From assembly GCA_040767085.1 (NCBI GenBank), contig JAXGPF010000011.1, positions 32,001 to 96,000 of the forward strand: a stretch of DNA of 64,000 bases. Direction: 5' to 3'. Made by a program: the position numbers and the translations under genes. Position 1 is the first letter of the stretch. Each line of letters starts with the position of its first letter. Below, in pieces: positions 57,252 through 64,000 of this stretch. Below the pieces are notes generated by a model. The model did no database searches. It saw only the letters and a list, made by a program, of their open reading frames with translations, and had not been told where the DNA came from. The DNA is from Kiritimatiellia bacterium (GTDB lineage: Bacteria; Verrucomicrobiota; Kiritimatiellia; JAAZAB01).

Positions 57252-57835
57252 TCATTTGCCGAGCAGCGTGTGCATCGCGCGCCAGCCGGCCGCCCGGACG
57301 CCGGGACACAACGGCATCGGTTCCGCATGTTCCGCCGTGCCGGCATGCACGACCGCCGCTTGCGACGCGCGCCGCTTCATCGCTGCCGCCAGCCGGAGCA
57401 GGGAGCGCGCATCGTCCGGCATGGGCGTGCGGGTGGCCTTGGCCTCGATCAGCAGCAGCCGGCGATCGCCTTCGTCCACCACGAAATCAACCTCCAATCC
57501 CTGGCGGTCGCGGAAGCAGTACAACCCCCGTTCGCGCCCCCGATTCAGGCGGTGCTTGACAATTTCGGCGGCGACCAGCCCCTCAAACAGCGGCCCGCGG
57601 AAAGGCGAGGTTGCCAGGGACGCTTCGTCCCGGATGCCCAGCAGCGCGGCCGCCAGCCCGGAATCCGCGAAATAGAGCTTTGGCGTCTTGACAATCCGTT
57701 TGCCGAAATTCTCGTAGTAGGGCGGCACCAGGATGATCTGCATGGTGACTTCCAGGATGCCCAGCCATTGGGTGATGGTTGGGACACTGACTCCCAGCGG
57801 CGCGGCCAGATCGGTCTTGTTGAGCATCTGCCCGC
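57252..57835 (-). pseudogene. 3' half of an AAA_14/DUF4143 ATP-binding protein, cut by an insertion
   Basis: GQMLNKTDLA..LGVS.PT...W...LE, N.GKRIVKTPKLYF.DSGL, G.LFE..V..E, RD..GLEVDF, IEAK. The N-terminal ATPase is missing, replaced by AT-rich DNA. Confidence 0.88.
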
Positions 57836-57895
57836 TGTAACGCGAGAAAATAAACGAAAAGGGTAGAAGTATAATAATGAAAAGGGTAAAATCAA

Positions 57896-58606
57896 CTATT
57901 TTCGACCCAATTTCAGGCGGCGGCCGATAGCTAATGCCAGGCGTGCTTGATATGAGTCCCAAAGCGCGTCCGGATCGCCACTCGACTCAACCGCCAGGAG
58001 CATCGCTTGACGTTCGCGCCAGAGGACAGTCCCAGGCGCCGGCACCAGGCGGTTGCCGTGCACATCAAAATAATCAATCTGCCGGGTGTACCGTAATTCC
58101 CATCGGCGCATTAACTCGAGGAATTGGGCATCATCTATCTGGATGATTTCACCCTCCACCACTGGCACGACAATGCCCATTGCACGCAGAACGTCGGGCT
58201 GTAGGGTGATTATATCCAGCGAGGAAAATCCCAGGCCCCGAATTTTAATTGCTGGCACAACCTCTACCACGGCAATCTCAAACGGAGCCACATCACATAA
58301 TTCCGGGGGCAACGGCGCAGCCTTATCGGCCAACAGACGGTATTTAGTGGCCATCTCTCGGCGCAACGCCCACGCTTCCGGATGCGTCGGCACGGCCTGG
58401 GCGGCCGCGCGGATCGTCGCCGCCGCATCCCCTTTGCGCAAATCAATCTCCCGCCACGCGGCGGCCGCGCCGATCCAATCGTTCGACGCCGCACGGGCGG
58501 ATATTTCACCGATCGCGGCGGCATGGGCGGGCGGGCGGCGGTCAGAGACCGGCGCGCCCCATGCCGCGCCGGTCAAAAAAACCACGGCCAAAACCATCCG
58601 GATCAT
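57896..58606 (-). CDS. Hypothetical exported protein (element-encoded)
   Basis: MIRMVLAVVFLTGAAWG signal peptide; start overlaps the upstream stop. Confidence 0.6.
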   Translation of the reverse strand: MIRMVLAVVFLTGAAWGAPVSDRRPPAHAAAIGEISARAASNDWIGAAAAWREIDLRKGDAAATIRAAAQAVPTHPEAWALRREMATKYRLLADKAAPLPPELCDVAPFEIAVVEVVPAIKIRGLGFSSLDIITLQPDVLRAMGIVVPVVEGEIIQIDDAQFLELMRRWELRYTRQIDYFDVHGNRLVPAPGTVLWRERQAMLLAVESSGDPDALWDSYQARLALAIGRRLKLGRK

Positions 58607-59325
58607 TTCTTTTTCTCCAATTCCGACTGTACCCGGCCCAAAAATCTCGTGTTCTCTTCAATGGCTTTCACCACCTTGATCGTGTCCATTAAAAACGCAC
58701 GGTATATCTCGGCGTCCACTGTATTTGGGTTGATCGCATCGAACGCTTTCCAGATGATATGCTTCTCATCCGGGATGGTGAAATTCCAGGCATAATCCCG
58801 GATGAGTTGCATTCTCACTGCGTTAGCCTCTGACGTTTTACCCTGGCCGACAAGCAAATTGGACAATTTTTGGGCTGTCTGCGCCAAAACACCAGGGTCG
58901 GCAGTGGGGTAATCCCGCAGAATGCGCTCATATGTGGCCTGGGCAGCAGCCTGGTCACCCAGCATCTGTTGACAATACCCGGCATACATAGATGCGTTTG
59001 CCAGCATCCTGGCCGGGGCGTCAGGGTAATCTCGGACCAGCGCGTTCAGTTCAATCAGGCCGGCCGCATAGTCTCCCATCCGGTAAATACTGAATGCGCG
59101 GCCGTTTTGAATCTGCGCGCGGATAGCCGCATCCGCATCCGGGAATGCCGCCCGCAACTCATCATACCGCGCCAGCGCGGCGGCCGCATTTGTGAAGCCG
59201 CATTCGCGCGCATAAACCCGAGCCTTTACCAGTTCGGCGGCGGCATCCCTGGGCGGCTTCCCGTCCTGCGCGTATGCCGCGATCCCAATCAATCCCGCTG
59301 CGATCACGATCCTGACTGTTTTCAT
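58603..59325 (-). CDS. Exported TPR-like protein (element-encoded)
   Basis: MKTVRIVIAAGLIGIAAYA-Q signal peptide; helical repeats MGD..A....Y..LV/IL RDYP.A. Confidence 0.7.
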   Translation of the reverse strand: MKTVRIVIAAGLIGIAAYAQDGKPPRDAAAELVKARVYARECGFTNAAAALARYDELRAAFPDADAAIRAQIQNGRAFSIYRMGDYAAGLIELNALVRDYPDAPARMLANASMYAGYCQQMLGDQAAAQATYERILRDYPTADPGVLAQTAQKLSNLLVGQGKTSEANAVRMQLIRDYAWNFTIPDEKHIIWKAFDAINPNTVDAEIYRAFLMDTIKVVKAIEENTRFLGRVQSELEKKK

Positions 59326-59342
59326 ACTACTACTCCTTGCTA

Positions 59343-60611
59343 TTACGGCGTTGTTCTTTCGATTTCCCAGGAATCCGGCCGTATCGGATTCCATCGTTGC
59401 TTTGTGCCGGACACATTCATCTCAAATCCAAGATCATCTACGCGCACCCATGACCAGACCAGCGCAGTGTTGGTGCTGCTCATCCAGTCCCCCCATGGGA
59501 TTGTGCAATCGTGGGACGGGTAAAAATAGATCCACTGGGTGACGCTGTTGCTGGAGATCAGCATCTCGCTCACCGCGTTGGTCTGCGGCTTCAGATTCCA
59601 GACGCGCACATCCTCCGCGTGATCATCGGTGAAATACACCAGCGCATTCGTGTCCCCGCGAGTGGCGTCCTGCACGTTTGTCCAGCTTTTGTAGTAATAG
59701 CAGAGCGATGCAAAGTTGTTCGTGCTAGCCTTGATTTCAAAATCCGTCCAATTGCCATCCACCGTTCCCACATCCAGATGGAAGACAGGGAAAGTCCCCG
59801 CCGCGCCGCCGCCCGTGGCGAGTTCGGTAAACTCACCGCTATTGAAATCCGGCCTGGTGTAGATTTTCGTGCCGCCGTCGAGGTAGAGGTTGCCCCGGAC
59901 GCGGGTGGTGCTGGGGATGGGGTTGGTTACGTATGAGCCGAGGGCGACAGCGTTGTTTGTGGACCAGGAGTATGTACCGAGCGCAACCGCATAATTAGGG
60001 GCATACGCATAGCACCCGAGAGCGGCACCGTATACCCATCCTTTTGATCGCTGCCCAACGGCTGTGCCGTGGTTGTAGCCAATCGTGCTCTCCCCGATCC
60101 CGACCCCTTGACTATATCCGCTTGCCTCACCCCCAATCGCCACGCCTTGGTTACCACCTCTGGCAAGCTGGCCGATGGACTGCCCATAAGGGCCATCGCT
60201 CCCGTTGGCGTTAAAACCCATCGAACACCCCTTATACGATCCGCTTGCTCCTGCGCCCAGAACCACATTTTCGCTATTCGTCATCAAGGGATCAATTACC
60301 CGCACCTGTGATTCGGTTAGTCCCGTGGCCTGCGCTACGAAGCAGGCGGTCGTGGTGGCCGGGTCGAAAACCAGCACATCCCCGGCGCTCGCGGGCGTGT
60401 TGGTAATCACGAATACCTGGCCGTCTATGGTGATAACCTGGTTGGTCGGTGTCGGGATCCCGCTATCCGCGAGATTCAGATTCGAGATTGAGAAGCCGGC
60501 GGCATCTAAGGGCGTCTGCAAGACCCCATTGCGGATCGGGAAGCTGCTTTGCGCGGTAGCCGCGCGCGCCAGGCCGAGGGCAATTGCTATAATAGCCAGG
60601 TTTTTTGACAT
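59343..60611 (-). CDS. Signal-peptide-bearing fibre/adhesin-like protein with YadA-head-like repeats
   Basis: MSKNLAIIAIALGLARAATA-Q; about 13-residue (G/A)VA(I/L)G repeats: GVAIG, GVGIG, GTAVG, GAALG, AVALG, AVALG. Confidence 0.65.
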   Translation of the reverse strand: MSKNLAIIAIALGLARAATAQSSFPIRNGVLQTPLDAAGFSISNLNLADSGIPTPTNQVITIDGQVFVITNTPASAGDVLVFDPATTTACFVAQATGLTESQVRVIDPLMTNSENVVLGAGASGSYKGCSMGFNANGSDGPYGQSIGQLARGGNQGVAIGGEASGYSQGVGIGESTIGYNHGTAVGQRSKGWVYGAALGCYAYAPNYAVALGTYSWSTNNAVALGSYVTNPIPSTTRVRGNLYLDGGTKIYTRPDFNSGEFTELATGGGAAGTFPVFHLDVGTVDGNWTDFEIKASTNNFASLCYYYKSWTNVQDATRGDTNALVYFTDDHAEDVRVWNLKPQTNAVSEMLISSNSVTQWIYFYPSHDCTIPWGDWMSSTNTALVWSWVRVDDLGFEMNVSGTKQRWNPIRPDSWEIERTTP

Positions 60612-60619
60612 GGTGCGTC

Positions 60620-61396
60620 CTATTTGATGATCAGGGCCGAAACATAATACCCCGCCGTAGGCACGGCGGCGCTGAAGCCCACCGTGACCTGGCTGGCGGT
60701 GGCGCCATAAAAATCCACGGCAACAATGCGCGGGGCCCCGGCGGACGGTCTGCGGATGATTGGCAGGACGGCCGCGGGGGGTGCGTCGAGTTCAAACCCG
60801 GACAAATCCAGGGTGATTTCCGTGGCGTCCTGGGAAATCTCCGCGGTGATGAGGTGATCTGTAGTCAGGACCGCGGCGGATGCTGGGTAAGGGGGTTCCG
60901 CGGGCGTCGGGAGCGTGCCGCCTTCATACATCTGCTTCAGAATAGTAGGCAGGAAGCGCCAGGTAGTCGGCTCGCCGCCGCCGGCATCGGCCAGTTCGAT
61001 ATCCGTCCGGGCAATCAAACTATGGAGGGTGGCAAGATCGGTGGCCAGTTCATTGGTGTGTAAACTCACCAGCAGATCGTATGCCCATACGGGTTCCTCG
61101 ACGGTGCCGATGTTCACTTCTGTGTGGCCGGTAGCCTCAAAGAGCTTGGCGGTGGGGTTCACGTTGTTCTTGGCGCAGATGACGACCTGCAGCCCAGCCG
61201 TCAGCCGGACGTTCTGGCTCAGGCTGGAAGACCAGAAGAATATCCGGAAGCGCACCAGGTCGCCGGCGACCAGGACGGCGCGGAGACTGCCGGCAATCGC
61301 GCTGGGTGCGCCATCGCCCTTATGCGGCCGGATGGCGTTGTCGGCCGCAATGGCGTCCACGTCTATGACCAAATTCAGTTGTCGGTTCCAGGACAT
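60620..61396 (-). CDS. Putative baseplate-upper (BppU-like) or fibre-associated protein
   Basis: Beta-rich N-terminal domain (LVAGD...RIFF...LHTNEL...DIEL), Pro-rich linker, short C-terminal beta domain; position in the tail module. Confidence 0.45.
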   Translation of the reverse strand: MSWNRQLNLVIDVDAIAADNAIRPHKGDGAPSAIAGSLRAVLVAGDLVRFRIFFWSSSLSQNVRLTAGLQVVICAKNNVNPTAKLFEATGHTEVNIGTVEEPVWAYDLLVSLHTNELATDLATLHSLIARTDIELADAGGGEPTTWRFLPTILKQMYEGGTLPTPAEPPYPASAAVLTTDHLITAEISQDATEITLDLSGFELDAPPAAVLPIIRRPSAGAPRIVAVDFYGATASQVTVGFSAAVPTAGYYVSALIIK

Positions 61397-63815: not shown

Positions 63816-64000
63816 TCACGTATAATACGCGCCCACGGTATGCCTGCTCTGTACCCGCAAAATCTGCTGCAGCAGCGACACCTGCTTCTCCGCCGCCGTC
63901 GCCGAGCGCCGCGCCGGATCGTTCACCACTCCCCCGATAAACCCGCCCATACGCGCCAGGCGGTCGGTAAAAATCTTCGGCGCCCCATCCTTCCCCGCCC
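63816..64000 (-). CDS. 3' end of a probable tail tape-measure protein (partial)
   Basis: Open frame from the window edge: ...TDRLARMGGFIGG...AAEKQVSLLQQIL...GAYYT*. Confidence 0.5.
   Translation of the reverse strand, partial: AGKDGAPKIFTDRLARMGGFIGGVVNDPARRSATAAEKQVSLLQQILRVQSRHTVGAYYT

Follow-up and report, generated by a model that had tools for sequence, protein, structure and literature searches.

A movable cassette of putatively exported proteins, one of them fiber-like, in phage elements of PVC-group bacteria

What is a fiber-like protein with an apparent export signal doing in the tail module of a prophage? Tailed phages are known to assemble their heads and tails in the cytoplasm. 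The question is raised by a stretch of 64,000 nucleotides (hereafter, the window) from a Kiritimatiellia bacterium (assembly GCA_040767085.1, contig JAXGPF010000011.1, positions 32,001 to 96,000), in which the late genes of a Mu-like element end, on the minus strand, in three genes that each seem to begin with a signal peptide. These genes, P1, P2 and P3, are placed behind a tape-measure gene and four further genes, T1 to T4 (Table 1). The explanation that we favor, at about an even chance, is that the trio is a copy of a mobile, Sec-exported envelope module of phage elements in bacteria of the Planctomycetota–Verrucomicrobiota–Chlamydiota (PVC) group, and not a tail fiber built in the cytoplasm.

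An earlier reading of the window, made from the sequence only (the sequence-only reading), had described three packed open reading frames (ORFs) here, each with a signal peptide, and our analyses bear out both points. The coordinates hold, on the minus strand, with 8 nt between the T4 stop and the P1 start, 17 nt between the P1 stop and the P2 start, and a 4-nt overlap of P2 with P3. A Shine-Dalgarno–like motif lies 7 to 8 nt upstream of each of the three starts; that of P2, AAGGAG before position 59325, favors the 240-aa protein over a 263-aa ORF. Signal peptides were called with a crude rule of our own, which scores n-region charge, the h-region and small residues at −3/−1, and not with SignalP. 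All three N-termini show a basic residue, then a hydrophobic run and small residues at −3/−1, and by this rule the trio was positive (3/3), compared to 1 of the 23 other proteins of the element and its flanks (a weak call, the 119-aa g119). No lipobox cysteine follows the hydrophobic stretch in P1, P2 or P3, as read from the sequences. Across the source genome, 115 of 881 picked ORFs (13.1%) were positive, and positive triplets on one strand occurred as a single run; the locus is thus unusual, yet not extreme. The main support for the export signals comes from their conservation in relatives rather than from the window locus alone.

Relatives of P1 resemble it only in the last ∼150 residues (50 to 70% identity), which form its C-terminal domain (CTD; alignment A1); their N-terminal parts are wholly different and include collagen, coiled-coil and YadA-like repeats. 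An exhaustive HMMER search of 1.84 billion representatives, clustered at 50% identity, returned 184 at E ≤ 0.001, of which 117 reached E ≤ 1e-10; of the 150 that were listed, almost all had the CTD at their C-terminus or close to it. With N-termini taken from the gene callers of others, 104 of the 134 representatives that start with Met were signal-peptide-positive, and among the 30 negatives were several with clearly internal starts or with a hydrophobic stretch slightly downstream. Lengths ranged from under 200 to over 1500 aa, with 69 of the 134 at 270 aa or less and 65 longer, and about half of the family thus consists of a signal peptide and a CTD with no fiber part. The CTD was found in no isolate phage when 50,697 phage records were searched by tblastn. 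The AlphaFold2 model of the domain (predicted local distance difference test score [pLDDT] 85.7, predicted template modeling score [pTM] 0.82) is a compact nine-strand sandwich without helix. No known fold was matched above noise: Foldseek against the PDB gave nothing at E ≤ 0.001, VIA wide a best Z of 5.2 (FN3/Ig, at noise level), BFVD a best E of 0.028, the ESM Atlas a best score of 0.80, below the meaningful level, and PDB sequence and profile searches with A1 nothing below E 0.06. The source genome holds a single CTD copy, and the idea of a receptor decoy, in which an exported copy would mimic the binding domain of the virion, was dropped for this reason. As a separate observation, large proteins with lipoprotein-type signals are encoded upstream of short CTD genes in two loci (L014:8275-9486 and L011:3215-5476), one of them with BNR/Asp-box repeats (BNR_6, 1.2e-9); these may have arisen as passengers that were split off from the CTD protein.

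CTD loci numbered 2 in viral, 19 in genome and 56 in metagenome collections, and dereplication at 95% CTD identity left 68. A recognizable head or packaging gene is present in 20 of these, and 40 are contigs shorter than 5 kb. The loci from genomes are nearly all from Kiritimatiellae, Verrucomicrobiota, Lentisphaerales or the "PVC group," the outliers being one locus in an Armatimonadota metagenome-assembled genome (MAG) and one partial match from Gammaproteobacteria, on a 3-kb MAG contig. Where at least 700 nt of downstream sequence was present, a partner gene followed the CTD gene in 43 of 51 loci, belonging to the P2 family (alignment A2) in 20 and to a second family (A4) in 23; one of the eight exceptions (L009) is a frame problem, with a P2-like gene detected there by tblastn. 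A P3-like gene (A3 or A5) came next in 26 of 30 loci. By the crude rule, the proteins at the three positions were positive in 56 of 61 (seven more ORFs, truncated at the 5′ end, were set aside), 47 of 48 and 30 of 30 cases, and the ORFs for capsid, portal and terminase at these loci, given the same liberal choice of start, in 0 of 21. When mapped on a 49-row CTD tree, partner types switch at least three to four times, compared to a mean of 16.6 after shuffling; the cassette thus seems mostly to be inherited as a unit, although kinship alone could give this pattern. Among 301 sampled genomes of the phylum the CTD occurred in 4 and the Mu-like capsid family in 38, with all four within the 38. 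Wherever there was enough flank the context was phage-like. We take it as solidly established that the export signals are conserved and selected, that the genes form a unit, and that this unit is phage-borne and moves within phage genomes. Full-text searches of the literature turned up no paper on tail fibers with Sec signal peptides or on this cassette.

The place of the cassette varies. In the window P1 sits in the tail module past the tape measure, where a fiber would be expected, as the sequence-only reading had remarked; most relatives of its CTD gene are elsewhere, and neither the tape measure nor T1 to T4 of the window were matched in any other locus. In L005, L041 and L053 the cassette is flanked by the large terminase and the Mu portal, at distances of a few bases (3 to 17 nt in L005 and L041); in L055 an A3 gene is followed by the portal, and L083 has the order terminase, CTD gene, A4. 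In twelve nonredundant loci the cassette comes 1 to 3 kb behind the Mu-like capsid gene, without an intervening tail gene, and in two (L007 and L012) it follows another head type plus several small genes. L043 has it beside genes for HNH and MazG, and L078 next to a GtrB-like gene. A distant CTD relative, L024, follows an integrase, a P2-like baseplate gene and a canonical tail fiber that lacks a signal peptide (phrog_327, E 5.7e-70). Relatives of the trio thus keep the signal peptide but not the position, the two traits that had been singled out for comparison, and the cassette behaves as a movable accessory unit.

Some of these loci are compact. L041:2315-17727 is an island of ∼15 kb between host genes with no recognizable tail gene, integrase or transposase, which encodes a helix-turn-helix (HTH) protein, a small-terminase-like gene, the large terminase, members of families A0 to A3, portal, protease, capsid and an adaptor-like gene. 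It also has a holin of the Pam3 type (E 1.7e-12), which does not border the cassette, and no recognized endolysin or spanin. A second island, L014:3083-12604, likewise lies between host genes and has no recognizable tail gene, integrase or transposase; it holds the exported cassette together with terminase, Mu portal, protease and capsid genes and an adaptor-like gene. At ∼10 to 15 kb, both could represent satellites that form capsids, or elements of PVC bacteria akin to gene transfer agents. Head-only elements such as L041 recall the capsid-forming phage-inducible chromosomal island (cf-PICI) satellites, for which one study reports the release of tail-less capsids and the joining of heads and tails outside the cell (10.1101/2025.02.11.637232).

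A fourth member, A0, is a signal-peptide protein of ∼120 aa encoded directly upstream of short CTD genes in at least 18 nonredundant loci. In the element of the window, the gene after the capsid gene, g161 (L002:10622-11107, outside the window), is a distant A0 relative, linked through the viral contig L004. Of 29 capsid loci (L096 to L115 among the loci concerned), 11 have a gene like A0 or g161 behind the Mu-like capsid gene, 10 of them in genomes without a CTD, which ties A0 to the head module more widely than the trio. The proteins of this family pair a hydrophobic N-terminus with a beta domain of ∼100 aa, and a signal-peptide gene at a core position of the head module is odd in itself.

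The first gene had also been likened to YadA heads, and structure prediction upholds this. Pfam returned nothing for P1 at E ≤ 1, YadA_head and the YadA-type membrane anchor included. The AlphaFold2 model of P1 (pLDDT 73.5 overall and 80 to 93 over residues 116 to 225) starts with a helix, followed by a small beta domain, a beta-roll (residues 116 to 225) and the C-terminal domain. In a VIA wide search of the PDB with this model, residues ∼108 to 240 aligned with YadA (1p9h) at a Z of 14.2, with 129 residues aligned, a root mean square deviation of 6.8 and 20% identity. Further alignments of the head were to BpaC (7o23, Z 13.6), BoaA (3s6l, 13.2), EibD (2xqh, 11.2 at 28% identity), CbpF, AtaA and UspA1, and the top eight rows were heads of trimeric autotransporter adhesins throughout. 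Foldseek with the whole P1 model gave none at E ≤ 0.001, a PDB sequence and profile search nothing below E 0.06, and NCBIfam nothing at E ≤ 0.01. One relative, P0013, keeps the YadA-like middle part, has an N-terminal domain of 230 aa in place of the signal peptide and differs in its C-terminus. P1 looks like a fiber whose virion-docking end gave way to a signal peptide.

P2 had been called TPR-like, and it does match Pfam TPR_6 (tetratricopeptide repeat; E 2.1e-8, 34.7 bits against a cut-off of 26.3). It falls below the cut-offs of TIGR02795 (E 1.2e-8, 35.5 bits vs. 90.1) and PRK10803 (20.1 vs. 383) and shows weak matches to BamD/YfiO. It thus resembles a periplasmic TPR protein of the CpoB/BamD kind, and is like CpoB/YbgF and BamD in its apparent signal peptide and TPR_6-type repeats; it differs in scoring far below the family cut-offs, in lacking an N-terminal coiled coil or lipobox, and in having a conserved C-terminal motif of its own. 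P3 matched nothing in Pfam, PHROG or NCBIfam, and its best ESM Atlas score was 0.80, below the meaningful level. Relatives of P2 are 21 to 31% identical (A2) and those of P3 18 to 35% (A3), the latter terminating in a basic tail; the export signals persist even through divergence this deep. Families A5 and A3 share their last 50 residues (hhalign, 91%), and A2 and A4 were treated as unrelated (hhalign, 7% probability). PDB profile searches with A3 and A4 gave nothing below E 0.06, Pfam nothing consistent on nine A4 members, and NCBIfam nothing at E ≤ 0.01 on members of A4 and A5, with chance-level rows of E 0.058 and 0.063 for two A5 members. The CTD and the partner families A2, A3, A4 and A5 are undescribed and now open to testing.

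If the trio is an envelope module, its mode of action might be as follows. Transcription of the late genes would run on through P1, P2 and P3, because there is no room for signals between the genes. All three proteins would be exported to the periplasm, where P2 and P3 would fold, hold or anchor the CTD of P1, and the variable N-terminal passenger, here the adhesin head, would act in the producing cell's envelope or upon it. This might cause adhesion or aggregation, mask a surface receptor, or condition the envelope at release; P1 would then not be the tail fiber of a virion built in the cytoplasm. Of these steps, we infer actual export, late coexpression, mutual contact of P1, P2 and P3, and what they do to the envelope. 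Metatranscriptome contigs (short and exact, from two runs of one study) cover parts of P3 (L002 1254-1528), T3, T1 and the tape measure, the gp36 region and others alike; they show no contrast between cassette and structural genes, and DNA carry-over is possible. A predicted complex of the CTD with P2 and P3 had a median score of 0.25, compared to a mark of 0.32, and speaks neither for nor against the proposed contact.

The conserved signals, the existence of a unit and its varying position fit an accessory exported module better than the single tail fiber of a virion. Also counted in favor of an envelope module are the resemblance of the P1 head to trimeric autotransporter adhesins, which are Sec-exported, and that of P2 to periplasmic CpoB/BamD. 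P1 shares with these adhesins an N-terminal Sec signal (by the crude rule) and the YadA-like head; theirs, however, is a YadA-type beta-barrel anchor with a preceding coiled coil, whereas P1 is predicted to end in a compact beta-sandwich. The eib genes of E. coli are prophage-borne, and P1 is likewise carried by a prophage, but it differs from adhesins of the Eib/YadA type in having two dedicated exported partner genes and late-operon packing. Exported morons are also known from late operons, among them lambda Lom and Bor, phi80 Cor and T5 Llp, which are signal-peptide proteins, nonessential for virion structure and sporadic in occurrence. The cassette is like them in encoding signal-peptide proteins beside or among tail genes and in being sporadic among relatives; it has no sequence or fold relation to them and is a unit of three to four genes with a fiber-derived member and no promoter of its own detected. 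The kind of arrangement is known, both as exported proteins among phage late genes and as prophage-borne adhesins of the YadA type; the variant is not: an exported unit of three to four genes that combines a fiber-derived member, a CTD for which no fold was matched above noise, and unannotated partner families. Exported phage proteins are usually single accessory genes; here a family of at least 184 sequence clusters of fiber-derived proteins keeps the signal peptide and travels with two or three exported partners in late operons of phages whose hosts belong to a little-studied bacterial group. If it is an envelope module, it would give phages a new route to altering the cell surface of Verrucomicrobiota and Kiritimatiellae, which live in guts, sludge and sediments.

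Several points weigh against an envelope module. Export of the cassette proteins is so far read from their sequences. No cassette protein resembles an outer-membrane channel or anchor, and no route of P1 across the outer membrane is visible. A consensus scan of the T4-P1-P2-P3 junctions found no sigma-70-like promoter or terminator, with the limit that the sigma-70 consensus may not be that of the host, and the genes are packed into late operons, a poor fit to classical, independently expressed lysogenic-conversion genes. The proposal of exported surface or lysogenic-conversion proteins in the sequence-only reading, which comes closest to our own explanation, is thus supported by the conserved signals and the accessory nature of the unit and not by its manner of expression. 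Long forms with collagen repeats match tail-fiber PHROGs in L007 and L012 (in L012, phrog_5073 at E 2.1e-34). The cassette is kept in head-only elements of ∼15 kb such as L041, and may therefore have a role in making or releasing particles. Lastly, in the window and in L004 a distant relative of the fourth member, A0, follows the capsid and P1 to P3 follow after further structural genes, an order that mirrors the build-up of the virion.

These last points lead to the alternative that P1 is an exported receptor-binding fiber of the virion, with the CTD as its distal tip and P2 and P3 as periplasmic assembly chaperones, which would join the particle once the inner membrane is breached at lysis. 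We consider this unlikely, though not negligibly so. Cassettes of a tail fiber and a downstream chaperone are well known (P2 H/G, Mu S/U, lambda stf/tfa), and in the window P1 stands at the expected place of a fiber and is followed by two small genes, as with fiber chaperones; no other fiber candidate was recognized in the element by Pfam or PHROG. The long forms have their collagen repeats and tail-fiber matches, and the CTD and its downstream genes move together between unrelated head types, as host-range cassettes do. The likeness to fiber/chaperone cassettes thus lies in a modular fiber-like protein with small genes behind it, a C-terminal part that moves with them and an N-terminal part that varies. 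The differences are the signal peptides on all members, the lack of a match to any known chaperone or fiber family apart from collagen repeats in some relatives (P2 matched no fiber-chaperone family beyond its TPR, and P3 none at all, in Pfam, PHROG and NCBIfam), the frequent placement away from tail genes and the many CTD proteins without a fiber part. Joining of heads and tails outside the cell has been reported for cf-PICI satellites (10.1101/2025.02.11.637232). Against an exported fiber stands cytoplasmic assembly itself: a tail fiber is a cytoplasmic protein that carries its virion-docking domain at the N-terminus, the end that the signal peptide takes in P1. The cassette also occurs between terminase and portal, in elements without recognizable tail genes, and, in L024, after a canonical fiber; about half of the family has no fiber part; and the literature searches yielded nothing on a Sec-exported tail fiber. 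The earlier proposal of an exported fiber with a TPR chaperone is weakened chiefly by the varying positions and the fiber-less half of the family. Were P1 a virion part after all, the rule of cytoplasmic assembly would be overturned.

A broader form of this idea is assembly of the virion in two compartments, whereby the sticky outer parts (the CTD fiber, its partners and perhaps the signal-peptide protein encoded after the capsid gene) would be made in the periplasm and joined to the particle when the inner membrane is breached. It is suggested by the cassette members that flank the tail genes in build-up order in the window and in L004, by the fiber-like makeup of the long forms and by the absence of any other recognized fiber gene in the element of the window, and we give it much the same low probability as the exported fiber. 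If it were true, even head-only elements would carry their own attachment organ.

A role in egress, in which the exported proteins would target the envelope as the lytic cycle closes, for instance by disturbing Tol-Pal or outer-membrane links through the CpoB-like P2, and would do the work of the spanins or disruptins of other phages, strikes us as quite unlikely. It would account for the embedding of the cassette in late operons and for its retention in the ∼15-kb head-only element with a Pam3-type holin and no recognized endolysin or spanin, and it would suit the resemblance of P2 to CpoB/YbgF and the basic tail of the P3 relatives. Lysis cassettes are known to shift place between phage genomes, as this cassette does. 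However, no invariant residue in A2 or A3 looks catalytic, and the sequences read contain no spanin-like lipobox or coiled coil; a spanin or lysis cassette, with its inner-membrane coiled-coil anchor and outer-membrane lipoprotein beside holin and endolysin, is not what P1 to P3 resemble. The length range of P1 relatives and their adhesin or collagen passengers are unfit for a lysis factor that spans the periplasm, and the L004 phage, besides its cassette, has genes for small membrane proteins where Mu usually encodes lysis functions.

The remaining alternative turns on the state of the element itself. The source genome comprises 4.08 Mb in 28 contigs and is 95.06% complete. The tight minus-strand gene row crosses the window edge at 64000, and we analyzed the next 40 kb as well (L002, in which coordinate + 56999 = window coordinate). 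Pfam and PHROG matches to Mu-type head and early genes identify the element as Mu-like (Table 1). The tape-measure-like gene noted earlier is confirmed, and the genes behind it do occupy the position of tail genes; T1 to T4 matched nothing in Pfam, PHROG or NCBIfam, T1 and T3 nothing in the PDB below E 0.06 by sequence and profile search, and the 14 relatives found for T1 are all unannotated. Their assignment as tail-tip proteins is thus tentative and goes by position. Of the genes sought beyond position 64000, capsid was found and terminase, holin and endolysin were not recognized in the element. Upstream of MuB there is only a 121-aa ORF, and no MuA transposase was found in the genome. The Mu F gene abuts an HTH gene where portal and terminase belong; Terminase_6N and Portal_Mu had no match in the genome, although the portal profile matched no control genome either, and tblastn of the genome with the portals and terminases of relatives, the 671-aa ORF beside MuB in L088 and the L041 holin gave none. 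A DNA contig from another sample bridges the Mu F/HTH junction, so that the gap is more than an assembly fault. The element of the window is defective. Domestication, in which the host would have kept a tail-derived apparatus with the exported trio as host-adapted outer parts, could draw on these missing functions (transposase, terminase, portal and lysis genes), on the intact state of the remaining ORFs and on the bridged junction, but is very improbable given that the head genes (capsid, protease, Mu F) are kept, needless as they are for a tail-only device, that the cassette is common in phage-like elements with terminase and portal, including two viral contigs, that the CTD in 4 of 301 related genomes gives no sign of vertical conservation, and that the deleted element is absent from the one other genome sampled in the genus.

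Table 1. The three-gene cassette, its parts and the other features of the element and its border
Feature	Position	Strand	Description
P1, 422 aa	59343..60611	minus	Putative signal peptide, small beta domain, YadA-like beta-roll head, neck, CTD
P1 signal peptide (predicted)	60552..60611	minus	Residues ∼1-20: Lys3, hydrophobic run, small −3/−1, then Gln; helix 2-19 in model
P1 YadA-like head	59892..60290	minus	Residues ∼108-240; left-handed beta-roll of ∼14-residue repeats
P1 CTD	59346..59804	minus	Residues ∼270-422; all-beta sandwich (model), rich in invariant Trp; family-defining (A1)
P2, 240 aa	58603..59325	minus	Putative signal peptide (residues 1-19), CpoB/YbgF-like TPR repeats, conserved C-terminal motif (A2)
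P3, 236 aa	57896..58606	minus	Putative signal peptide (residues 1-17), mostly helical orphan, basic C-terminal tail (A3)
T4, 258 aa	60620..61396	minus	ORF; directly upstream of P1
T3, 363 aa	61400..62491	minus	ORF
T2, 211 aa	62470..63105	minus	ORF
T1, 248 aa	63063..63809	minus	ORF; first gene past tape measure
Tape measure, 547 aa	63816-65459	minus	phrog_8462 E 2.7e-16, phrog_9483 3.6e-14; last 185 nt (63816..64000) inside window
MuB-like ATPase			First in transcription order; phrog_296 1.1e-16
Gam			After MuB-like gene; 6.4e-29
Two HTH genes			Between Gam and Mu F protein in transcription order
Mu F protein fused to ADP-ribosyltransferase domain	L002:15214-16638 (window-equivalent 72213-73637, outside window)		Phage_Mu_F 4.3e-17, ADPrib_exo_Tox 3.1e-18
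G			After Mu F protein; Phage_tail_S 1.4e-8
Protease I			After G; 1.6e-14
Two major-head ORFs	L002:11145-12693 (window-equivalent 68144-69692)		phrog_1005 1.7e-36 and 2.7e-46
gp36			After head ORFs; 2.1e-10; then three small ORFs
AT-rich stretch	57845..57895		Directly after P3 stop; twice-repeated word CCCTTTTC(A/G)TT, read from sequence; probable right end of element
Truncated host DUF4143 ATPase gene	57252..57836	minus	C-terminal part only; DUF4143 E 2.2e-38; abuts element

Directly after the P3 stop, an AT-rich stretch with a repeated word is probably the right end of the Mu-like element. The host gene that abuts it aligns only with residues 234 to 413 of a full-length DUF4143 paralogue, and its N-terminal half, sought at the far end of the prophage and genome-wide, was not found. 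Two-sided joints seen in DNA runs at L002 807/6496 were set aside, as they rest on matches of ∼18 nt. The major capsid gene of the element is partly duplicated in tandem, as ORFs of 214 and 306 aa with 95% identity over 203 aa, which is either a real duplication or an assembly collapse. In the related viral contig L004, the gene after the trio (L004:11981-13285) carries a PBECR1 nuclease domain. L088:253-3819, on the viral contig closest to the head module of the window, holds three DNA methyltransferase genes in a row, two of the D12 class and one C-5.

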